Positions 17,075 through 30,008 of a DNA stretch of 32,000 bases are shown here, piece after piece. A program made the translations under genes and the position numbers. The stretch's first letter is position 1; each line of letters starts with the position of its first letter. The stretch is taken from the NCBI GenBank assembly GCA_018266395.1, contig JAFEAM010000012.1, positions 263,786 to 295,785 of the forward strand, read 5' to 3'. A model generated the notes under the pieces. That model was not told the DNA's origin and ran no database searches. It saw only the letters and a program-made list of their open reading frames with translations. This DNA comes from Bacteroidota bacterium. GTDB taxonomy: Bacteria > Bacteroidota > Bacteroidia > Cytophagales > Cyclobacteriaceae.

Positions 17075-19438
17075 CTACATGGACTCGATCAGGAGTGGAG
17101 TGTCGGCCTCGTCAAGTTTGCTCGCAGGATTACTTTCATTTTCACTCTCACCTGGCGGCAGTTGATTTACTTCTTTCAATACGGTCCTTCTGGTAAGTAT
17201 CAACCATATCAGAGGCAAAACTCCGCCCGTGACAAAGATGGCGCCGCCGATGATCCTCAACCATGTGAGGGCTTGAAATGCTTTACTGTCGATAAAGGCA
17301 CTGCTTCGGGCAAACCATAATCCATGATCAAGCACAGCATTGAATTGAAGAATTCCCGCCGGGAACAAGTCAAGGAGTACCATAAGCAACAGACCGGCAT
17401 TAAGCGACCAGAAGGATAAGCTCACAATCCTGGACGGCCAACTTTCGGATCTGGACAGCAGCTGACAACAGAAAAGCATTCCGGCCAGTGAAAGGTTGCC
17501 GTACACTCCCATTAGCGCGGCGTGTCCATGATTGACGGTGAGATAAGTCCCGTGCTCAAAGTAATTCGCAATAGGAAGATTGATGATAAATCCCATTAGT
17601 CCCGCTCCAAAGAAATTCCAGAAGTTCACACCGACCAGGAAGAGAAAAACGGATGAGAAACCGAACGCATTATTTCCTCCGCGGGCAGTTTCCAATTGTA
17701 ACGGCAAACGACTGAAGCGCCAGGCCTCCAGCGTAAGCAATATCAATGGTACGACCTGTAGAGTTGAGAACACCGAGCCCAATGCCATGGTGAATACCGG
17801 TTTGGCATTCCAGTAGAAGTTATGAGAAATCCCCAGCAGTCCTGAGCCCAGAAAAAGCAGGCATGCGAGATAGATCACCCGAATGGCTGCGCGGGCACTC
17901 ACCAGTCCCATCAGGACCATGAAGTATCCGATCAGGACAGTGGTGAATACTTCAAAAAACGCTTCTGCCCACATGTGAACGACCATCCATCTCCAGAAAT
18001 CTGCAATAACAAAATTGGTATCAGGTGTGAACATGAACGCGGAGCAGAGGAGGATCAATATGCTGACGATCGAGTAAACCAACCAGTTAGGCAAGGCCCA
18101 GGGTTGATGAAGTTTCATCACCGGCCTCAGTCCCCGGTACAGGGTAAAAGCCCAAAGACAGAAGATTGCATAGAGGGTAATCTGCCAGATTTTGCCTGGT
18201 TCCAGGTATTCCCAGCCTTGATGGCCAAACCAATACCAATTGCTCCCAAAAAGCCCTTTGGGGCCACCAAAAATGCCAACCAGCCCCCCAATAACCAACA
18301 CCACGACGAGCCAGAAGATCAGGTTAACCAAGGTCTTTTGATGCCGGGGCTCCTTGGGTGAGAGCATGGGAACAACAAAAAGCGATGCGCCAATCCAACA
18401 ACCTGAAATCCATAGCAACGAAAGTTGAACATGCCAGCTCCTGGTAATTGTTACAGGTAAAACTTTTGAAATGTCTAACCCCCAGAAATTTACGAAGCCG
18501 ACAAAATCGTGTACCGTGAGAATGCCTGCAAGTACTTGCAAGCCAAAAAGCAGGATGGCGGCGTAAAAGAACTTGTATGTCGCCTTTTGCGTGTCTGTCG
18601 GATGGAATCGACTCACGCTCTCCAGTGTGAACAAAGGGCTGGCATCGCGGGTAAATGTTTCATTATCCAGTTTCTCCAGTCGCCCGTGGTAGAAAAGAAC
18701 AACGCCAAGTCCAAGAATAAGGCCGAAGGAACCTATGATGCTCCAAATGATAACCGCTTGACTTGGCGAATTGCCTGCTATCGGGTCGTAAGGCCAATTA
18801 TGTGTATAGCTGTAATCTTTGCCTGGTCTTTCAGTGCCGCACACCCACGCACTCCAGTAAAAGAATGAAGCAAGCGCCCGCAGATCGTTCTTATCGGTGA
18901 GATGGTGAGCCGGACTGAAGGAAGCTTTTGTATTGCCTGTGAAAACGCCGCTGTAGTAATCCACCAATTGTTCAGCGGCGTACACCTGGGCATCATTGAG
19001 ATTGACAGTATTGGTTCTTTCGTCAAAGTGATTCTCCTTGATTTCTTTTTTTACCCGGTTGTTGATGCCGTAGCGTTGCCAGGTCTGGTCACCAGCCTCT
19101 GTAGCTATTGACTTGAGGTAATAGTCCGCCATGAATTCAGCAACACGGTGGAGGGCATCAGCTGAAAAATCCGGACCTCGATTTGCGCCGTCCCCAAACA
19201 TGCTTCCATATTCCATCAGGGCATGTTCCTGAAATACCTGCTGGCCCTTACGTATATCAGCCTGTGTGATGACCAGGTTCTTGTCTGGCCCGGCATAGTC
19301 TGGAACCGGGGGAGCCTCCGTATAGGTATGGAGTCCAATCATGAAGACTCCGGCAATACTGATGACAAAAATGACGGTGAGAGGGATCCACCAATTCCTG
19401 GGATTGAGCAGAAAATCGATAAACCGGTAGTTTGCCAT
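17075..19438 (-). CDS. norB: quinol-type nitric-oxide reductase family protein (qNor/NorZ-like) with atypical, Nod-like active-site residues
   Basis: 787 aa from the ATG at 19438. It has an N-terminal TM helix plus a periplasmic domain of about 280 aa without CxxCH, followed by a heme-copper-oxidase core. That core carries 'RSWH', 'VVHMWAEAFFEVF' and 'VNHGHAALMG'. Unusually, the conserved His-His pair reads 'SHNFYW' and 'LEVVPL' reads 'LQVVPL' (see findings). Confidence 0.9.
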   Translation of the reverse strand: MANYRFIDFLLNPRNWWIPLTVIFVISIAGVFMIGLHTYTEAPPVPDYAGPDKNLVITQADIRKGQQVFQEHALMEYGSMFGDGANRGPDFSADALHRVAEFMADYYLKSIATEAGDQTWQRYGINNRVKKEIKENHFDERTNTVNLNDAQVYAAEQLVDYYSGVFTGNTKASFSPAHHLTDKNDLRALASFFYWSAWVCGTERPGKDYSYTHNWPYDPIAGNSPSQAVIIWSIIGSFGLILGLGVVLFYHGRLEKLDNETFTRDASPLFTLESVSRFHPTDTQKATYKFFYAAILLFGLQVLAGILTVHDFVGFVNFWGLDISKVLPVTITRSWHVQLSLLWISGCWIGASLFVVPMLSPKEPRHQKTLVNLIFWLVVVLVIGGLVGIFGGPKGLFGSNWYWFGHQGWEYLEPGKIWQITLYAIFCLWAFTLYRGLRPVMKLHQPWALPNWLVYSIVSILILLCSAFMFTPDTNFVIADFWRWMVVHMWAEAFFEVFTTVLIGYFMVLMGLVSARAAIRVIYLACLLFLGSGLLGISHNFYWNAKPVFTMALGSVFSTLQVVPLILLTLEAWRFSRLPLQLETARGGNNAFGFSSVFLFLVGVNFWNFFGAGLMGFIINLPIANYFEHGTYLTVNHGHAALMGVYGNLSLAGMLFCCQLLSRSESWPSRIVSLSFWSLNAGLLLMVLLDLFPAGILQFNAVLDHGLWFARSSAFIDSKAFQALTWLRIIGGAIFVTGGVLPLIWLILTRRTVLKEVNQLPPGESENESNPASKLDEADTPLLIESM

Positions 19439-19465
19439 GGTTTCGCTGTTTAGGGCCGTAAACCT

Positions 19466-19491
19466 AATAAAGGACAAGACAGTCCCTTATT
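19466..19491. promoter_or_regulatory. 26-bp palindromic candidate operator, AATAAAGGA-N8-TCCCTTATT
   Basis: The arms match as an inverted repeat at 8/9 positions (10/11 if extended to 19465..19492). It lies 27 nt upstream of the norB-like ATG, in the 146-bp divergent region shared with the tnaA-like gene. A near-identical copy is at 25806..25831. Confidence 0.45.
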
Positions 19492-19539
19492 ATCCTGATC
19501 ATATTGACTTAAATCAGGTGTACAGGCAACCTAATGGGA

Positions 19540-19547
19540 TATTTTTG
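19540..19547 (+). promoter_or_regulatory. possible Bacteroidota -7 promoter box (TATTTTTG = TAnnTTTG)
   Basis: This is an exact match to TAnnTTTG, 37 nt upstream of the tnaA-like ATG. I found no TTTG -33 element at the usual spacing, so support is weak. Confidence 0.3.
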
Positions 19548-19584
19548 CTACCCGGCCCATTGTCCCGGACCGGATCTAAAGATT

Positions 19585-20970
19585 ATGACGGAAAAGAAAC
19601 TAAGAACCCTGGCAGAGCCATTCAGGATCAAGATGGTGGAGCCACTCAAGATAACCACGGAAGAATACAGGGAGGAAGTACTCAAAAAGGCTGGATTTAA
19701 TCCTTTTTTGCTCAGGTCGGAGGATGTTTTTATTGACCTTCTGACGGACAGCGGTACGGGAGCCATGAGTGACCGTCAATGGGGCGGGATGATGATCGGC
19801 GATGAAAGCTATGCCGGCGCCAGAAGCTGGGAACACCTGGAGTCTGTAGTGAAGGAATTGACAGGCATGGCACATGTGCTTCCTACTCATCAGGGACGTG
19901 CCGCAGAGCGAATACTTTATGGGATACTGGGAGGCAAGGATAAAGTCTTCATCAGCAATACACACTTTGATACTACCCGCGCAAACATTGAGTTCACAGG
20001 CGCCAATGCTCTTGATATCATTCCGCCTACATCAAGAGATCCGGAAGTGGATCTCCCATTCAAAGGCAACATTGACACGGAAGAACTAGAGCGGTTGATC
20101 GTGAAGCATGGTTCTTCACAAATAGGCGCTGTGGTTATGACGGTCACAAACAATTCTTTTGGCGGTCAACCCGTAAGCATGCAGAATATGAAGGAGGTGC
20201 GTACTATTTGTGACCGCAATAAAGTATTTCTGGTTATTGACGGATGTCGCATCGCCGAGAACAGCTACTTCATTAAACATCGGGAGAATGGCTTTGCGGA
20301 TAAGACCTATGAAGAGATAGCCAAAGAGATGCTTAGACTAGGTGATGCATTCATTATGAGTGCAAAGAAGGATGGGCTGGTAAATATGGGAGGACTGCTC
20401 ACTTTAAAAGATGACGAGCTGAGCAGGAAATGCACGAACCTTCTGATTATTTCTGAAGGATTCACCACCTACGGTGGCTTGTCAGGTCGCGATATGGAGG
20501 CCATCGCCATCGGGCTGAAGGAGGTCTTCGATCCGGATTATTTACACTACCGGATCCGCAGTACTGCGTACCTGGGCGAGCATTTGCGCGCCAAGGGTGT
20601 ACCGGTGCTTTGGCCCATCGGCGGTCACGCGGTGTACATAGACGCCAAAAGACTTTATCCGAATATTCCTGTGAACGAATATCCCGGCCAGGTGCTGGTG
20701 TGTGACTTGTACGTGAAGGGAGGGATCAGGTGTGTAGAAGTGGGGAGCGTCATGTTCGGCAAATACGATGAGCGGCACCAACTGATCCCGGCTCAAAACG
20801 AACTGGTGCGGTTGGCGATTCCCCGCAGGGTATATACACAAAGTCATATCGACTATGTGCTTGATGTGTTCGATGATATTCTGGAACTGAGAAAACAGAC
20901 CCGTGGATGCCGGATCACCTATGAACCGCCTTTCCTCAGACATTTTACTTCGCAATTTGAAAGACTGTAA
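19585..20970 (+). CDS. tnaA: tryptophanase-like beta-eliminating lyase (PLP-dependent)
   Basis: The ORF runs 19534..20970, and the ATG at 19585 ('MTEKKLRTLAEPFRIKMVEP') matches the family N-terminus. The PLP-Lys motif is 'MSAKKDGLVNMGG'. Tryptophanase-type specificity positions are present: 'THFDTTR' (Asp) and C-terminal 'LRHFT' (His). Confidence 0.85.
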   Translation: MTEKKLRTLAEPFRIKMVEPLKITTEEYREEVLKKAGFNPFLLRSEDVFIDLLTDSGTGAMSDRQWGGMMIGDESYAGARSWEHLESVVKELTGMAHVLPTHQGRAAERILYGILGGKDKVFISNTHFDTTRANIEFTGANALDIIPPTSRDPEVDLPFKGNIDTEELERLIVKHGSSQIGAVVMTVTNNSFGGQPVSMQNMKEVRTICDRNKVFLVIDGCRIAENSYFIKHRENGFADKTYEEIAKEMLRLGDAFIMSAKKDGLVNMGGLLTLKDDELSRKCTNLLIISEGFTTYGGLSGRDMEAIAIGLKEVFDPDYLHYRIRSTAYLGEHLRAKGVPVLWPIGGHAVYIDAKRLYPNIPVNEYPGQVLVCDLYVKGGIRCVEVGSVMFGKYDERHQLIPAQNELVRLAIPRRVYTQSHIDYVLDVFDDILELRKQTRGCRITYEPPFLRHFTSQFERL

Positions 20971-20983
20971 ACGATAATTGACT

Positions 20984-22372
20984 ATGAAAAGAACTGTTCA
21001 GAAGAAATCATGGGCTGAGCCTTACAAGATGAAGATGGTTGAACTGCTGAATGTGACTAGCCGTCAGCAGCGGGCGAGAGCAATCAAGGATGCTGGATAC
21101 AACACTTTTCTTCTCCGGTCGGAGGATGTGTATATCGATCTGCTTACTGACAGTGGTACCAACGCCATGAGCGATCGGCAATGGTCAGCGTTTATGGTAG
21201 GTGATGAAGCTTATGCAGGGAGCGCGAGTTTCTATCGGATGGAGGCGGCCATTCAAAAACACTACGGTTACAAGTATGTCATTCCTACGCACCAGGGTCG
21301 CGGGGCAGAGAACATTTTATCCAAAGTGATGATCAAGCCGGGTGATGTGATACCGGGTAACATGTATTTCACCACTACCCGGCTCCATCAAGAACTGGCA
21401 GGCGGTAAATTTCACGATATCATAATTGATGAAGCCCACGACCCAGGGAGCGAACATCCTTTCAAGGGTAATGTTGACCTGAACAAACTGGCAGCCATCG
21501 TAAAGAAAGTGGGGGCTAAGAAGATTCCCTATGTAAGCATAGCCACCAATGTGAATATGGCGGGTGGCCAGCCAATCAGCATGAAGAACCTGAAGGAATT
21601 ACGCGCCTTCACTAAAAGGCACGGCATCAAAATTATTCACGATATGACGCGTGTAGCGGAGAATGCGTACTTCATTCAGCAAAGAGAAAAAGGTTACGAG
21701 AAAAAGAAGATACGTGACATCGTTCGGGAAATATGCGACAATACAGATGGAGCTACCATGAGTGCGAAGAAGGACGCCCTTGTGAATATTGGCGGATTCA
21801 TGGCTACCAACGACTGGAATGTGTACGAAGAAGCCCGGAACCTTGTCGTAGTCTATGAGGGTTTGCATACCTATGGCGGTTTGGCCGGCAGAGATATGGA
21901 GGCCATCGCCGTAGGAATCGGGGAAAGCCTAAACGATGAGCATCAACATGCCAGGGTGGGACAGGTGGAATACCTTGGCCATCGCATGGAGTCTTTTGGG
22001 GTCCCTATTGTGAGACCAATAGGTGGACATGGAATTTTTGTTGATGCCAAAGCTTTCCTGCCACATCTCACCCAGGATCAGTTCCCTGCTCAGACACTGG
22101 CCGCAGAGATTTTTGTTGACTCTGGCGTGCGAACTATGGAGCGGGGAATTGTCTCAGCGGGTCGCAAGCCCGATGGGACCAACTACTATCCTAAGCTCGA
22201 ACTTGTAAGGTTTACCCTGCCCAGAAGGGTTTACACGCAGGCTCATATGGACGTCGTCGCCGAATCAGCCGGATCTGTCTTTGAAAGAAGGAAGAAGATC
22301 AAAGGAATGAAAATGGTTTACGAACCAAAGTACCTGAGATTCTTTCAGGCAAGATTCGAGATGATCAAATGA
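20984..22372 (+). CDS. tpl: tyrosine phenol-lyase-like beta-eliminating lyase (PLP-dependent)
   Basis: It is very close to the remembered Citrobacter TPL sequence: 'AGYNTFLL.S.D.YIDLLTDSGTNAMSD.QW', 'GNMYFTTTRLHQE' (Thr at the phenol-binding position), PLP-Lys 'MSAKKDALVNIGG' and C-terminal 'LRFFQARF' (Phe-Phe). It starts 13 nt after the tnaA-like stop. Confidence 0.85.
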   Translation: MKRTVQKKSWAEPYKMKMVELLNVTSRQQRARAIKDAGYNTFLLRSEDVYIDLLTDSGTNAMSDRQWSAFMVGDEAYAGSASFYRMEAAIQKHYGYKYVIPTHQGRGAENILSKVMIKPGDVIPGNMYFTTTRLHQELAGGKFHDIIIDEAHDPGSEHPFKGNVDLNKLAAIVKKVGAKKIPYVSIATNVNMAGGQPISMKNLKELRAFTKRHGIKIIHDMTRVAENAYFIQQREKGYEKKKIRDIVREICDNTDGATMSAKKDALVNIGGFMATNDWNVYEEARNLVVVYEGLHTYGGLAGRDMEAIAVGIGESLNDEHQHARVGQVEYLGHRMESFGVPIVRPIGGHGIFVDAKAFLPHLTQDQFPAQTLAAEIFVDSGVRTMERGIVSAGRKPDGTNYYPKLELVRFTLPRRVYTQAHMDVVAESAGSVFERRKKIKGMKMVYEPKYLRFFQARFEMIK

Positions 22373-25997: not shown

Positions 25998-26450
25998 TCA
26001 TCTGGATGAACGGGGGCTGTAGTTCTTCAGGTAAGCTTTTCCCTGCAGCACATCCCGGGCGGCGGACTGAATGCTGGTGTCCTTGAACACTTCTTTTAGC
26101 TTGTCTTTATAGAGTTTCACTTCGTGGTGCACAGGACAGGGAAAGGAATCGGAACATTTCTTCAGTCCAAGCGCACAGGAGCTTAACACATCATCACCAT
26201 CAATGGCCTTCACGACAGCATTGATCGGGATAGGCTTGGCTTTCGGATCCAGAAAGAAGCCGCCATTCGGTCCTTTAATGGACGAGATGATTTTCTTTCT
26301 TACAAGTGTCTGAAGAATCTTGGCGGTAAAGGGTACCGGTGAATCAATGGCACGGGCAATTTCTGGAATTCCTAGCCTGGAGCCATCTATGCTTTTCATG
26401 GCTATGAAGAGTACTGCACGGATCGCGTATTCGCAGGCCTTGGTGAACAT
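25998..26450 (-). CDS. Rrf2-family transcriptional regulator (NsrR/IscR-like, 3-Cys cluster motif)
   Basis: 150 aa. The N-terminal winged helix 'MFTKACEYAIRAVLFIA...GIPEIARAIDSPVPFTAKILQTLVRKKIISSIKGPNGGF' is typical of Rrf2 proteins. Three cysteines, C92-x6-C99-x5-C105 ('SSCALGLKKCSDSFPCPVHH'), sit where Fe-S ligands lie in NsrR/IscR. Confidence 0.9.
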   Translation of the reverse strand: MFTKACEYAIRAVLFIAMKSIDGSRLGIPEIARAIDSPVPFTAKILQTLVRKKIISSIKGPNGGFFLDPKAKPIPINAVVKAIDGDDVLSSCALGLKKCSDSFPCPVHHEVKLYKDKLKEVFKDTSIQSAARDVLQGKAYLKNYSPRSSR

Positions 26451-26667
26451 TGTTTTGTGTTTGATAGTGCCGCCCTGATACCGGAACGAACATAAAGCTA
26501 AAGAAAGGAAATGGCACTACCCCTCCTTTCAGCGGTTGGGTTTTGTTATCAATGGTATGCGTTTATTGACCACACTATACTCTCACCAATGACTAAATAG
26601 GATAATCGAAAATTGAATATTGGATATAATTTCAGCCATGAGGGCTTAACTTGTGCAATCTGGCATT

Positions 26668-27732
26668 ATGCGAATTCTGAAACCGGTCTTACTAATCTTT
26701 GCTGTAATCAATCTCCTTGTGGGAATGACCAGCGGCCTCGGTCGTATAGGTTGGACTATGCCCCTGCCCGAACTCTACGTACATCACGGTGCGATCATGG
26801 TCGGAGGTTTTCTCGGCAGCCTGATTTCATTGGAAAAGGTCATTCCATTGAAGAAGAACTTATTATATGCAGGGCCTGCGGCAGGCGTGCTCAGTATTAT
26901 TGCTTTGCTTAATGGTCGGTTTGATGTTGCCATTTGGTTGCTGATCTTTTCAAGTGCTGTCCTGATCGTGGTTTACCTGTACTATCTCATACCACATTGG
27001 GATTTCACCTTGATAGTGGCGCTGGCTGGTGCCTGTTGCCTGCTCATCGGGAACATCATCTTACTTCAGAAAAGGATGTACCCGTCTATCTACACCTGGT
27101 GGTTCGGTTTTCTTCTTCTCACCATCGTGTCTGAACGTCTCGAACTTTCCAAATTCCTCCCGGTGCCACCCCTGATGAAGAATTTGCTCAAGGTATTATT
27201 GGCGCTGTTTCTCCTCAATCTCATCAGCCCTTATTTAAACTGGAGGGGTTACTGGATTATGGGAGCGATCATGATGGCCATCAGTCTGTGGCTTCTTCGT
27301 TATGATATGATCCGCATTGGTATCCGCAAGAGCGAACTCACCCGCTTCACCGCGGTGGCGCTGTTATGCGGTTACATCGCCCTTTTTGTGGAAGGATGGT
27401 TTTTGGTAAGCCCTCCGTCAACCCTTGTATTGTACGATCTCGTTCTTCATACCTTCTTTATCGGCTTTGTGTTCATGATGATCTTTGCACATGGGCCCAT
27501 CATTCTTCCAGGTGTGCTCGGCTTTTCGGTCAAGCCTTACCATCCTGCTTTGTATGTTCCACTGATCGGACTCATTCTGTCGCTGAAATTGCGGATCATG
27601 GCAGACCTGGGATGGATCAACTATTCTTGGAGAGCGATCAGCGGCTGGATTTCGGCTGGCAGTATTCTCTTGTATTTTCTGACGATGGCCCTGACTACCC
27701 TCCTAGCGCTGCGTCATGCAAAAACTGCTTAG
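26668..27732 (+). CDS. polytopic (about 12-TM) membrane protein, unknown function, distantly NnrS-like (tentative)
   Basis: The ORF runs 26653..27732 and I preferred the ATG at 26668. It is hydrophobic throughout, with about 12 predicted helices by eye. Intramembrane His motifs are 'YVHHGAIMVGGFLGSLISLEK' and 'LHTFFIGFVFMMIFAHGPIILPG'. An internal echo is 'GGFLGSLISLEK' / 'FGFLLLTIVSERLE'. Confidence 0.7.
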   Translation: MRILKPVLLIFAVINLLVGMTSGLGRIGWTMPLPELYVHHGAIMVGGFLGSLISLEKVIPLKKNLLYAGPAAGVLSIIALLNGRFDVAIWLLIFSSAVLIVVYLYYLIPHWDFTLIVALAGACCLLIGNIILLQKRMYPSIYTWWFGFLLLTIVSERLELSKFLPVPPLMKNLLKVLLALFLLNLISPYLNWRGYWIMGAIMMAISLWLLRYDMIRIGIRKSELTRFTAVALLCGYIALFVEGWFLVSPPSTLVLYDLVLHTFFIGFVFMMIFAHGPIILPGVLGFSVKPYHPALYVPLIGLILSLKLRIMADLGWINYSWRAISGWISAGSILLYFLTMALTTLLALRHAKTA

Positions 27733-28891
27733 GGTACCGGTATTCTTCTTCTTCCTTGCGGGTTGTGTAGGATTGCTGCTTCGCTGGCAGGCGTATCGGC
27801 CGATCAACATCGACTACACCTTTTGGCTGCATGCGCATTCACATGTAATGTTCCTCGGCTGGATTTTCAACGCATTGATGGTGGGAATGATCTGGCGTTT
27901 TGTTCCCGGTGAGAAACAAGCAGGGTACAAACCTTTCCTCTGGTGGATCAACATTATGGTGACAGGAATGCTAATCTCCTTTCCGCTGCAGGGCTATGGG
28001 CTGTTTTCGATTTCCATATCCGCGTTGCATACGCTGCTTGTCCTTGCCGTCATTGTCCGTTTTTTCAGGGACACTTTTGAAAAACGAGATCAACTTCCTG
28101 TGTACGCAGCACGAATTGCGCTTGTCTTCTTTATGATTGCTTCCGCAGGCCCTTTTGTGGTCGGAACCCTGAAGGCCAATGGACTGGGTCAGTCAGACTA
28201 CTATTATCTCGCTGTCTATTACTATCTGCATTTCCAATATAATGGTGCTTTTCTGTTTGGCGTGTTTGCATTGTTGCTGGAATGGTCATCAGGTAAGGGC
28301 ATTAACCCCGACCACACGGCGCTGCGCCGGTCATGGAGGATATTATTTGTTGCTGTTTTTCCGGCTTATGTATTGACGGCCTTATGGACCAAACCCGGAC
28401 TGGCTTTTAATGCCATCGGCTTCATCGCGGGATTGATGCAGATAGTAGCGTGCTTTTATTTGCTTACAGCCATGAGCAGCGTGCCGTCGGATGCATGGCG
28501 TGCGATCTCACGCATAACCCGACGGCTGCTGACCCTTGCGATCATCAGCTTCGTCGTGAAGATCGTATTGCAATTACTGTCATCTTTTCCAGCCATTGCC
28601 CAGCTGGCTTACGAGAACCGTAACATAGTTATCGCCTATCTGCACCTGGTGTTGCTGGGCATGTTTACACTCGCGTTGATGGCATGGTACCATGAACAGC
28701 AGATCGTGAGGCTGAGAGTCTTTTGGACAGGGACCTTTGTACTGAGCTTCATCGTGCTCGAGTTGGTTCTTGTCATTTCAGGATTCACAGAAATCACATC
28801 TCTTCCTGTTCTGCTTCTGGTCACGACTGCAGGGTTGGTAATCGGACTTGGAGGTTGGGGGATGGGGATGAAGAGGGGCGGTGGTGAGTAG
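27716..28891 (+). CDS. polytopic (about 12-TM) His-rich membrane protein, unknown function
   Basis: 391 aa. The start overlaps the upstream stop by 17 nt. A recurring [W/Y]-L-H-x6-F helix motif appears three times: 'WLHAHSHVMF', 'YLHFQYNGAF' and 'YLHLVLLGMF'. Confidence 0.7.
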   Translation: MQKLLRVPVFFFFLAGCVGLLLRWQAYRPINIDYTFWLHAHSHVMFLGWIFNALMVGMIWRFVPGEKQAGYKPFLWWINIMVTGMLISFPLQGYGLFSISISALHTLLVLAVIVRFFRDTFEKRDQLPVYAARIALVFFMIASAGPFVVGTLKANGLGQSDYYYLAVYYYLHFQYNGAFLFGVFALLLEWSSGKGINPDHTALRRSWRILFVAVFPAYVLTALWTKPGLAFNAIGFIAGLMQIVACFYLLTAMSSVPSDAWRAISRITRRLLTLAIISFVVKIVLQLLSSFPAIAQLAYENRNIVIAYLHLVLLGMFTLALMAWYHEQQIVRLRVFWTGTFVLSFIVLELVLVISGFTEITSLPVLLLVTTAGLVIGLGGWGMGMKRGGGE

Positions 28892-29002: not shown

Positions 29003-29008
29003 AATCTG

Positions 29009-29094
29009 TACCCGGGACGGGAGTTGAACCCGTACAGCCATTACTGGCCACAGGATTTTAAGTCCTGCGTGTCTACCAATTCCACCACCCGGGC
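29009..29094 (-). tRNA. tRNA-Leu (anticodon UAA)
   Basis: I folded the reverse complement by hand. Acceptor GCCCGGG/CCCGGGU; D arm GUG..CAC; anticodon stem CAGGA/UCCUG with loop CUUAAAA; long variable arm GGCCAGUAAUGGCU; T arm ACGGG-UUCAACU-CCCGU; discriminator A73. CCA is not encoded. Confidence 0.9.
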
Positions 29095-29106
29095 ATGACA
29101 ATTGAC

Positions 29107-29137
29107 GATTTGTTGATTTAGTGATTTGAAGATTTGG
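29107..29137. repeat. short AAATCA-type degenerate repeat block (left copy)
   Basis: 'gatttgttgatttagtgatttgaagatttgg'. Its reverse complement shares 'tcaaatcact' and 'aaatcaacaaat' with 29568..29607, so the two blocks form an inverted pair flanking the four-helix-bundle gene. Confidence 0.5.
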
Positions 29138-29399
29138 CTTGCGCTTGAAGTCGGAGACGGACAGTCTTTTTGGAACTTGAAAATATCTTTAGCAGCTCGT
29201 CACTCTCTTTTTCGAGGGCTGCAATGTCAGAAGTTATCGTTCCTGATTTTGTCATAATCGCCATCCAGAAATTGGTTTCATCCATTTCCTCGACGATGAT
29301 ACAAAGCTTGGCGTAGAACTCTGCTTTCGACCTTGCTCTTAGTGCCGCCCGGTAATTAGCAGTTACCGAAGCCACTGAACGTAGCAATTGCCTGCCCAT
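29118..29399 (-). CDS. four-helix-bundle protein (23S rRNA intervening-sequence protein family), apparently N-terminally truncated or degraded
   Basis: 93 aa. 'GRQLLRSVASVTANYRAALRARSKAEFYAKLCIIVEEMDETNFWMAIM' fits the family core (QLxRS..S..AN..EA....S..F..KL.I...E..ET..WL). Family members are usually about 120 aa, and upstream sequence shows family-like fragments in other frames. Confidence 0.6.
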   Translation of the reverse strand: MGRQLLRSVASVTANYRAALRARSKAEFYAKLCIIVEEMDETNFWMAIMTKSGTITSDIAALEKESDELLKIFSSSKKTVRLRLQAQAKSSNH

Positions 29400-29567
29400 A
29401 AAACTTGTATCTATCCGGTAAGGAAGATCAGCAGATCATGACTTTCTATGTACGCAAATTCAGTCACAACCTCCAAATTGGTAATATTTCAAAGACCGGA
29501 AAACCTGATCATCTCAGAATGGTCTATAAACGAAGAATGATTTGAAGAGACGGCTTGTGGCAGTTTC

Positions 29568-29607
29568 CTCAAATCACTCAATCATTCAATCGACAAATCA
29601 ACAAATG
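29568..29607. repeat. short AAATCA-type degenerate repeat block (right copy)
   Basis: 'ctcaaatcactcaatcattcaatcgacaaatcaacaaatg', inverted relative to 29107..29137. Its left end also pairs with 29538..29547 ('tgatttgaag') to give a 9/10-bp hairpin with a 19-nt loop. Confidence 0.5.
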
Positions 29608-29610
29608 TCT

Positions 29611-29684
<74 letters not shown>

Positions 29685-29783: not shown

Positions 29784-30008
29784 TTAGTGGCAACAACCAT
29801 CCTTTTGCATGGGGGGACATTTCACACTTCCGTAAGAACAAAAGACACAGCAATCCCCCGGCTTGGGCTTCAGCAGGGTTTTACAGTGTTCACATTCATA
29901 AAAATACTGGCAAGAATCAAGGGCCATCTCTTCTTCCTTGCTGAAGCCGCAAACAGGACAAGTGATGGCAGAACGAAGAATGATGTTTTCGTTACCGACG
30001 CTTTCCAT
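29784..30008 (-). CDS. GDCCVxC-motif small cysteine-rich protein
   Basis: 74 aa with 11 Cys: 'CPVCG', 'CEHC', 'GDCCVFCSYGSVKCPP' and C-terminal 'GCCH'. The 'GDCCVFC' string matches the GDCCVxC domain name pattern. Confidence 0.7.
   Translation of the reverse strand: MESVGNENIILRSAITCPVCGFSKEEEMALDSCQYFYECEHCKTLLKPKPGDCCVFCSYGSVKCPPMQKDGCCH

Follow-up and report, generated by a model that had tools for sequence, protein, structure and literature searches.

Results and discussion

In the window analyzed here, a stretch of 32,000 nucleotides (nt) from a Bacteroidota bacterium of the family Cyclobacteriaceae (GenBank assembly GCA_018266395.1, contig JAFEAM010000012.1, positions 263,786 to 295,785 of the forward strand), a gene for a regulator of the Rrf2 family is divergent from two overlapping genes for polytopic membrane proteins, referred to below as MP1 and MP2. 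We propose, with moderate confidence, that this locus is an accessory module of nitrogen-oxide (N-oxide) stress and respiration, composed of an NsrR-like switch and a pair of cofactor-binding membrane proteins analogous to NnrS. Relatives of MP1 and MP2 recur beside N-oxide genes, both proteins are predicted to adopt the fold of heme-copper oxidase subunit I, and both exhibit a histidine motif reminiscent of that of NnrS.

The regulator gene occupies positions 25998-26450 on the minus strand (150 amino acids, aa). A divergent intergenic region, the presumed site of promoter and operator (26451-26667), separates it from the MP1 gene on the plus strand (26668-27732, 354 aa), the last 17 nt of which (27716-27732) overlap with the MP2 gene on the same strand (27716-28891, 391 aa). 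A preliminary description of the window, made from its letters without database searches, had proposed these three open reading frames (ORFs) and their divergent arrangement, and our analysis confirmed them. The mechanical ORF call for MP1 starts at the GTG at 26653 (359 aa); because the homologs of MP1 are 352-354 aa long and the 93%-identical relative in locus L002 lacks the extension on the GTG side, the start was assigned to the ATG at 26668.

Neither MP1 nor MP2 shows a match at E<=1 in Pfam and NCBIfam, which agrees with the earlier statement that they cannot be placed in a named family, and no PDB sequence was matched at E<=10 when the profile of either protein served as the query. In a set of 5.8 billion proteins each of them has about 1,000 homologs (972 for MP1), of which all the named ones are annotated as "hypothetical protein" and come mostly from Cyclobacteriaceae, Chryseolinea and Ohtaekwangia, with some from metagenome-assembled genomes of Flavobacteriaceae; MP1 was found in 142 species-level genomes. 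For MP2, a profile search of 1.84 billion representatives gave a family of 1,902 clusters at E<=1e-3 (969 at E<=1e-30), the clusters being defined at 50% identity. A full-text literature search found no paper naming MP1 or MP2, an absence that is in itself no proof. Judged from these searches, MP1 and MP2 are two new protein families. The possibility that they are paralogs of each other was considered and rejected, with BLASTP finding nothing and hhalign returning a probability of 1.6%. A weak match to DUF2871 (PF11070) was detected in 13-17% of the MP2 relatives, the best score being 22.7 bits versus the gathering threshold of 27.4 bits, and no match was detected for MP2 of the window. Positions 1-97 of the 134-position DUF2871 model align with the first ~100 residues of the MP2 relatives (TM1-TM3, where TM stands for transmembrane helix, including the HxHxH helix), but the model spans one third of MP2, and the function of DUF2871 itself is not known.

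Genomic neighborhoods of MP1 and MP2

For MP1, the window was analyzed together with 80 loci from species-representative genomes (Cytophagales-type or unclassified Bacteroidota according to the record titles, plus one 'uncultured bacterium'); the neighbors within 7 kb were clustered, and names were assigned to the clusters by Pfam and, for NosB, by the motifs given in PMC9697520. MP1 is linked most strongly to clade II nitrous-oxide-reductase clusters and not to NOR, which the preliminary description had missed. At least one nos gene is found in 47 of the 81 loci (NosZ in 42, NosB/NosL in 40, NosD in 40, NosF in 31 and NosY in 23), and a small cytochrome c in 38. Further recurrent neighbors include fasciclin and an unnamed 605-aa protein (18 loci each), a qNOR-like protein (14-16), Crp/Fnr and HemN (14 each), truncated globin (13), class II ribonucleotide reductase (12), ScdA (11), a FixI-type Cu-ATPase (9) and Rrf2 (9 loci, within 10 kb). 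Two gene orders dominate, both on the same strand and with short gaps: MP1-MP2-(HemN)-cytochrome c-(Fas1)-NosZ-NosB-NosL-NosD-NosF-NosY, and NosD-NosF-NosY-MP1(-MP2) with a convergent qNOR behind it. When MP1 stands behind nosY, the gap amounts to 6-53 nt, and now and then the genes overlap. The arrangement of the window, with Rrf2 divergent from MP1-MP2 and a qNOR gene nearby, is found also in loci L002, L005 and L009.

No N-oxide gene is present within 7 kb in 23 of the 81 MP1 loci, many of them on short contigs. A subgroup of loci with MP1 without MP2 (L010, L012, L014, L015, L016 and L023) has no N-oxide genes in this range and exhibits a conserved context of its own, with an FKBP-like gene, a gene for a ~170-aa PEBP-like protein and an FdhD-like gene; hence, not all MP1 genes reside in islands of nos or nitric oxide (NO) genes. 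The Chryseolinea chromosome OZ245870.1 carries two separate nos clusters (L032 and L050), one with MP1 alone (qNOR-ScdA-MP1-cytochrome c-Fas1-NosZ) and the other with MP1-MP2-cytochrome c-NosZ. The conserved protein of ~605 aa, which has no match in Pfam, is encoded beside qNOR, MP1 and Rrf2 in 18 genome and 6 metagenome loci (an example is L044:4879-6696, minus strand).

The MP2 family was analyzed in 80 independent metagenome loci encoding MP2 relatives at 28-45% identity, many of them on contigs of only 2-5 kb. An N-oxide gene is present in 48 of these loci; the individual counts are 26 for ScdA, 23 for cytochrome c, 20 for Rrf2, 17 for NosZ, 10 each for Crp/Fnr and MP1, and 8 for NOR. The order Rrf2>ScdA>MP2>hemerythrin is recurrent (e.g. 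L141, L145, L147, L156 and L157), and in L143, L160 and L128 the order Rrf2>ScdA>MP2 is found with the hemerythrin gene missing or located elsewhere. In L085 Rrf2>MP2 adjoins a cytochrome c gene, in L086 MP2 follows genes for a multicopper-oxidase-domain protein (possibly NirK-like), a redoxin and a cytochrome c, and several MP2 loci are neighbored by genes for NirK-cytochrome c fusions, an FGE-sulfatase-domain protein and SCO1/SenC. The co-occurrence with Rrf2 and NO genes that had been suspected from the window is therefore borne out by both sets of loci. For comparison, a single-copy gene would by our estimate fall within 7 kb by chance in about 0.3% of cases. Against this rate and the dominance of N-oxide genes in two independently anchored sets of loci, we regard it as very improbable that MP1 and MP2 are generic membrane proteins or transporters placed here by coincidence, even though nos, nir and ScdA genes are lacking in the window and N-oxide genes are missing from the 23 MP1 loci mentioned above; as Foldseek matches transporters only with low probability (see below), fold and context together effectively exclude it.

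The qNOR-like gene of the window (17075-19477, minus strand; Pfam COX1 and NorB_cytochrome_c-like), which belongs to the context and lies outside the MP pair, is separated from the Rrf2 gene by 6.5 kb, as had been stated earlier. Its product carries 'ISHNFYWN' in TM7, i.e. His-Asn in place of His-His, and 'STLQV' with a Gln in TM8, and both features are shared by 12 of 12 aligned relatives. Changes of His to Asn and of Glu to Gln have been described for the putative NO dismutase (Nod), including that of the flavobacterium Muricauda (PMC3413370). The substitutions in the window protein appear to match those of Nod, and a Nod-type identity may thus also apply to the NOR genes that accompany MP1 in the Cytophagales examined here. 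In 16 other loci, MP1 has a qNOR-like gene of this type at a distance of at most 10 kb.

Predicted structure and conserved residues

The AlphaFold2 models, built from alignments of 121 (MP1) and 119 (MP2) sequences, exhibit twelve long helices each (MP1: predicted local distance difference test, pLDDT, 93.5, predicted TM-score, pTM, 0.92; MP2: pLDDT 95.5, pTM 0.93); the helices assigned by DSSP support the twelve TM segments that the preliminary description had counted in each protein. Foldseek searches of the PDB identified NorB (3o0r_B), CcoN (6xkw_n, 9g6b_A and 3mk7) and ba3 subunit I as matches of MP1, with the probability of 1.0 and query-normalized TM-scores (TMq) of 0.57-0.71, and CcoN, COX1, bo3, aa3, NorB and qNOR as matches of MP2 (E-values down to 4.8e-6, TMq 0.70-0.76). 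All matches with the probability of ~1.0 are subunits I of the heme-copper oxidase superfamily, and transporters (VMAT, GltTk) appear only with low probability, so that the placement in an unrelated transporter family, which the preliminary description had named as the outcome that would speak against it, was not obtained. Since the structural alignments comprise ~440-500 columns, i.e. the whole length of the proteins (~460 for MP2), the twelve helices must be paired in order and not in a rotated register.

At the sequence level the relationship is far less evident. Weak matches to Pfam COX1 were found in 6 of 100 diverse MP2 relatives (best E 9.5e-5), and none for MP1 and MP2 of the window (PF00115). 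Comparison of the MP1 and MP2 profiles with the alignment of the window qNOR by hhalign gave no significant result; two weak and mutually inconsistent registers were obtained, one placing TM1-3 on TM9-11 and the other TM7-8 on TM7-8, of which we favor the in-register one because the Foldseek alignments run from end to end. The distribution of Lys and Arg residues in the loops predicts the N-in/C-in topology for both proteins, which is also that of the oxidases. MP1 and MP2 share with heme-copper oxidase subunit I the 12-helix fold over its full length and His residues on TM2 and TM10 (in MP2 also on TM6), but they are ~100 residues shorter, match none of the Pfam models and have no partner subunits (II, NorC or CcoO) encoded beside them.

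The histidine motifs quoted for MP1 and MP2 in the preliminary description are all present and largely conserved in 119-132 homologs. In MP2, the invariant residues are H41, H43 and H310, with H39 and H172 conserved in at least 90% of the sequences; in the alignment of 132 sequences, with identities of 26-40%, H41, H43, Y94 and H310 still show no variation. In the predicted topology, the conserved polar residues of MP2 all face the periplasmic half of the membrane, with H39, H41, H43 and M45 in TM2, H105 in TM4, Y163, Y168, Y170, H172, Y175 and N176 in TM6, K282 and Q286 at the end of TM9, R302, Y308 and H310 in TM10 and E349 in TM11, and none of them in the cytoplasmic half. MP1, in which H40, H261 and H275 are invariant, has R26, H39, H40 and M44 (the latter three in TM2), Y256, D257 and H261 (TM10) and R309 conserved in the periplasmic half, and E56, K57, E156-R157-x-E159, W208, R211, D213, M271 and H275 in the cytoplasmic half.

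In canonical oxidases, six His ligands are contributed by TM2, TM6, TM7 (His-His) and TM10 (H-x-H), of which those on TM2 and TM10 hold the low-spin heme, and the hemes are located in the periplasmic half. MP1 carries His residues on TM2 and TM10 only, with none on TM6 and TM7, and its two TM10 His residues are 14 positions apart. Of the ligand-bearing helices, MP2 exhibits conserved His residues on TM2, TM6 and TM10 only, with a single His on TM10, and in place of the His-His of TM7 it carries a conserved Y218-x-L220-S221-x-x-W224 motif. With the residues assigned by helix number, the set of six canonical His is incomplete in both sequences, and neither MP1 nor MP2 appears to keep the CuB/FeB site.

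Comparison with NnrS

NnrS is a putative heme-copper membrane protein with 12 TM helices. Like dnrN/ScdA, it forms part of the core of the NsrR, NnrR and DNR regulons (PMC1274295), and it is also a protein of the NorR regulons. MP1 and MP2 resemble it in size (~400 aa), in being polytopic (12 TM helices per literature) and in neighborhood: nnrS is found with nsrR, dnrN/ScdA and nir, nor and nos genes (PMC1274295), and MP1 and MP2 are associated with such genes by the analysis presented above. The consensus of the NnrS TM2 helix, W-H-A-H-E-M-L-F-G-F, is paralleled by H41-S-H43-V-M45-F-L-G48-W49 of MP2, with the same spacing, and TM2 of MP1 displays H40-x3-M44-x2-G47-F48, spaced as in NnrS; both correspondences are at the level of motifs, without statistical support. 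In the consensus lines, an H-x4-G motif in a late helix is also common to NnrS, MP1 and MP2. On the other hand, there is no significant similarity, NnrS signatures such as GHTGR are missing from MP1 and MP2, and NnrS is a single protein found mainly in Proteobacteria, while MP1 and MP2 are two distinct, co-encoded proteins of Bacteroidota. A search for a solved NnrS structure found none. These comparisons support the view that MP1 and MP2 may "work like" NnrS without being members of the NnrS family. The resemblance to NnrS noted in the preliminary description fits the His motif of TM2, and homology to NnrS is not detectable.

The Rrf2 regulator and its putative operators

The Rrf2 protein matches the Pfam Rrf2 family confidently (E 1.9e-22, 80 bits) and exhibits the Fe-S-type triad of Cys residues announced in the preliminary description, within the motif C92-x6-C99-x5-C105-P-V-H108-H109, with an additional Cys at position 6; the motif is conserved in the orthologue of locus L017. 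In IscR, a His is located three residues after the last Cys. The window protein thus resembles the regulators of the NsrR/IscR type in its Rrf2 fold, three C-terminal Cys residues and a His three residues past the last of them, as well as in being encoded divergently from, or co-directionally with, NO-stress genes. It differs from them in the spacing of its Cys residues (C-x6-C-x5-C) and in its scores against the equivalog models: among the NCBIfam models it passes only the cut-off of the Rrf2 superfamily, reaches 29.2 bits with the NsrR model NF008240 (cut-off 182), and remains far under each of the cut-offs for IscR, RirA and SufR. Orthologues of the regulator gene adjoin ScdA, qNOR and MP1/MP2 in L002, L005, L009, L007, L017 and L041, and more distant Rrf2 genes lead the Rrf2-ScdA-MP2 operons. 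From the Cys triad and the placement of the orthologues, the regulator of the window is a putative NsrR-like sensor of NO built on an Fe-S cluster.

A single inverted repeat, GAAAGGA-N14-TCCTTTC at 26503, was detected in the Rrf2-MP1 intergenic region. The 90 nt proximal to Rrf2 (26476-26565), which include this repeat, show 100% identity to the corresponding stretch of L002, and the half proximal to MP1 diverges; the conserved block has no match in Rfam. Operator-like palindromes had been reported as shared in this part of the window. We could not confirm this: a k-mer comparison of the Rrf2-MP1 intergenic region with the region upstream of NOR revealed one common 8-mer, which by our estimate is about what is expected by chance, and the inverted repeats of the two regions differ in sequence and in spacing. 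A dyad-count motif search over 26 regions upstream of Rrf2 genes detected no general motif. On visual inspection, the distant Rrf2-ScdA-MP2(-hemerythrin) operons of a single clade (L128, L141, L143, L147, L151, L156, L157, L158, L160 and L022) proved to be preceded by a conserved palindrome of 16 bp and of flavobacterial type, AGGATAAATTTGTCCT. A TAnnTTTG box, which we take to be the -7 element of Bacteroidota promoters, follows ~25 nt downstream, and the palindrome represents a candidate operator of the NsrR type in Bacteroidota.

Do MP1 and MP2 act together?

In 55 of 82 loci, the gene behind MP1 is MP2, and in nearly all of them the stop and start of the two genes overlap (52 of the 54 adjacent cases counted). 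The overlap of 17 nt is also the commonest one, most of the others amounting to 14 to 29 nt and a few to 56 to 92 nt. The overlap noticed in the window is thus the rule among its relatives, and it suggests that MP1 and MP2 are translationally coupled. A natural in-frame fusion of the two proteins was also found (P0478, 776 aa, on 2 contigs), encoded behind a regulator of the Crp family; its residues 4-347 match the MP1 profile (E 3e-100) and its residues 364-758 match that of MP2 (E 3e-82). Such an arrangement makes it likely that MP1 and MP2 form a heteromer where both are encoded. The neighborhood of the fusion gene (L083:2200-4530) also contains a cupin gene upstream and genes of an NAD-reducing [NiFe]-hydrogenase beside it.

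Proposed function

For the accessory module proposed here, we infer NO sensing, formation of a complex, binding of a cofactor and NnrS-like protection, and envisage them as follows. The Rrf2 protein would be an NsrR-like regulator built on an Fe-S cluster, and damage to the cluster by NO would release the divergent promoter, which in turn would drive the translationally coupled expression of MP1 and MP2. The two proteins would most likely form a heteromer with the oxidase fold but without the CuB/FeB pair of His ligands, and each of them would bind a cofactor in its periplasm-facing half, most plausibly heme b via the His residues of TM2 and TM10, possibly together with a metal. By handling NO at the membrane or buffering it there, MP1 and MP2 might keep NosZ, Fe-S enzymes and the Nod/qNOR enzymes of the same clusters working. 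Of the NO- or metal/heme-linked module sketched in the preliminary description, the association with Rrf2 and N-oxide genes holds, and the shared palindromes were not confirmed.

A number of observations weigh against this interpretation. Firstly, an NnrS profile built from 28 sequences collected with the S. meliloti pSymA nnrS gene (L082:15126-16337) and confirmed as PF05940 via homologues gave hhalign probabilities below 1% with the profiles of MP1 and MP2, including a diverse one, although this NnrS profile is shallow (at least 64% identity). The Pfam NnrS model (PF05940) itself has no match at E<=1 in MP1 or MP2 of the window and matches only 1 of 121 MP1 relatives (E 1.2e-3) and 0 of 119 MP2 relatives, which lends no support to homology. 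In the MP1 relative that scores best with our NnrS profile (P0112), TM1-2 of NnrS land on TM8-9 of MP1 and the His residues are unmatched; this alignment gives no support either. As the biochemistry of NnrS is itself poorly understood, the comparison with it would concern the role more than the mechanism. Secondly, the equivalence of the TM2 and TM10 His residues to heme ligands is approximate, the mapping having been made by helix number. Thirdly, no operator was recognized for the Rrf2 protein of the window in the Rrf2-MP1 region by the inverted-repeat, k-mer and palindrome comparisons, and palindromes of the AGGATAAATTTGTCCT type do not occur in the window above the level of shuffled controls. 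Fourthly, no MP2 gene adjoins MP1 in 27 of 82 loci, MP1 often standing alone after nosY, and MP1 is missing from 70 of the 80 MP2 loci, MP2 being alone in most of the stress operons; since the two also occur apart, an obligate heterodimer is not established. Finally, nos, nir and scdA genes are all missing from the window, so that its association with nos is by homology to other genomes only.

Alternative interpretations

A broader alternative, to which we give a low probability, is that MP1 and MP2 represent unrecognized functional branches of the heme-copper oxidase fold, with a direct part in N-oxide chemistry or in its coupling to energy. They would be either the missing membrane partner that supplies clade II NosZ of Cytophagales with electrons or maintains it, taking the place of NosR/NosGH, or a new heme-based NO-converting enzyme beside the Nod-like qNOR. 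Both versions are allowed by the predicted fold, the His, Tyr, Met and Glu residues on the periplasmic side, the MP1-MP2 fusion and the position of the genes within operons with nosZ.

A related reading is that of an electron-input module, in which MP1 and MP2 would serve as a quinol dehydrogenase or redox link that passes electrons via the small cytochrome c to clade II NosZ and replaces NosR and NosGH. The position of MP1(-MP2) in line with cytochrome c-nosZ-nosB-nosL-nosDFY argues for such a role, as do the lack of NosR- and NosGH-like genes among the recurrent neighbors and the ability of the oxidase/qNOR fold to bind hemes and quinol. The electron route and the accessory proteins of clade II NosZ systems are incompletely known, and NosB, essential in Wolinella, is an uncharacterized polytopic membrane protein (PMC9697520). 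MP1 and MP2 resemble NosB, NosR and NosGH in occurring in nos clusters, in being integral to the membrane and in that the function is not settled. They are nevertheless distinct from NosB, which is ~190 aa long, exhibits the LNHYIGM and YGHN motifs that MP1 and MP2 lack and is encoded by a separate gene in the same clusters, and from NosR, the flavin or Fe-S domains of which they do not possess, and they occur also outside nos clusters. Published Bacteroidota nos clusters list only nosZ, nosB, nosL and nosDFY, and those of flavobacteria have been described without MP1/MP2-type genes (PMC9697520). Moreover, the linked enzymes of the qNOR/Nod type should need no external donor complex (PMC3413370), the wider MP2 family resides mostly in Rrf2-ScdA-hemerythrin stress operons without a reductase to feed, and neither a nos nor a cytochrome c gene is found near MP1 and MP2 in the window. 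Altogether, we regard a function in electron input as unlikely.

The periplasm-facing clusters of His and Met residues (HHxxxM in MP1 and HxHxHxM in MP2) could also indicate a role of MP1 and/or MP2 in the transport or insertion of copper (or heme) for periplasmic or membrane N-oxide reductases, comparable to that of NosL, SCO1 or CcoA-type assembly factors. Neighbors that would fit such delivery of a cofactor are the FixI/CcoI-type Cu P-type ATPase (9 loci), SCO1/SenC (12 loci), NosL/NosD and HemN. We find this distinctly unlikely: there is no known metal transporter with this fold, the high-probability Foldseek matches are all redox enzymes, Rrf2-ScdA-MP2 operons without a cuproenzyme are frequent, and the genes for the Cu-ATPase and HemN may be part of a general low-oxygen island.

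Or perhaps MP2, with or without MP1, could be a new catalytic N-oxide enzyme, an active but strongly diverged member of the heme-copper oxidase superfamily, which reduces or otherwise converts NO by means of a heme and a non-canonical metal/Tyr site? The full 12-helix oxidase fold, the invariant His residues on TM2, TM6 and TM10, the dense cluster of Tyr residues on TM6, the conserved Glu on TM11, the weak COX1 matches among relatives and the constant company of NO-handling genes would all be compatible with catalysis. Nonetheless, the His-His of TM7 and one of the two TM10 His residues of the binuclear center are gone, profile comparison with qNOR gave no significant match, and many of the genomes already possess an enzyme of the NOR/Nod type beside the MP genes; an enzymatic function therefore seems quite improbable.

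Significance of the prediction

Clade II N2O reducers among Bacteroidota are sinks for the greenhouse gas N2O, and their accessory machinery and electron supply are partly known. MP1 and MP2 are concrete candidates for the missing functions, be it the protection of NosZ against NO, the input of electrons or the handling of cofactors. The MP2 family, with its ~1,900 clusters, appears to be a Bacteroidota counterpart of the poorly understood NnrS, and the characterization of a single member could provide a structural frame, that of the oxidase fold, for a whole class of NO-responsive membrane proteins. In addition, the analysis yields a candidate regulon of the NsrR type in Bacteroidota together with its candidate operator.

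Other features of the window

The rest of the window comprises housekeeping genes, an RND efflux operon, the qNOR-like gene and genes for an epimerase, a GNAT protein, an aminotransferase and a GH43 protein. A scan for promoters and terminators gave results at the level of shuffled controls, the consensus used not being suited to Bacteroidota.

Downstream of MP2, the scan of the 25-30 kb segment with Rfam revealed two tRNAs and nothing more. These genes, for tRNA-Leu(TAA) and tRNA-Gly(GCC) (29008-29684), flank a gene for a protein of the 23S-rRNA-intervening-sequence type (29118-29399), and the block occupies the place where most relatives have nos genes after MP2. An ORF for a 74-aa Cys-rich protein (29784-30008, minus strand), with the motifs CPVC, CEHC and GDCCVFC and no match in Pfam, adjoins the tRNA-Gly gene.

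On the other side of the locus, two tandem paralogs of beta-eliminating lyases (tryptophanase/tyrosine phenol-lyase family; 19534-22372, plus strand) are divergent from the qNOR-like gene. Such a tandem pair is found directly beside MP1 also in L002, L059, L072 and L073, which suggests that the lyase genes belong to the same island as MP1.

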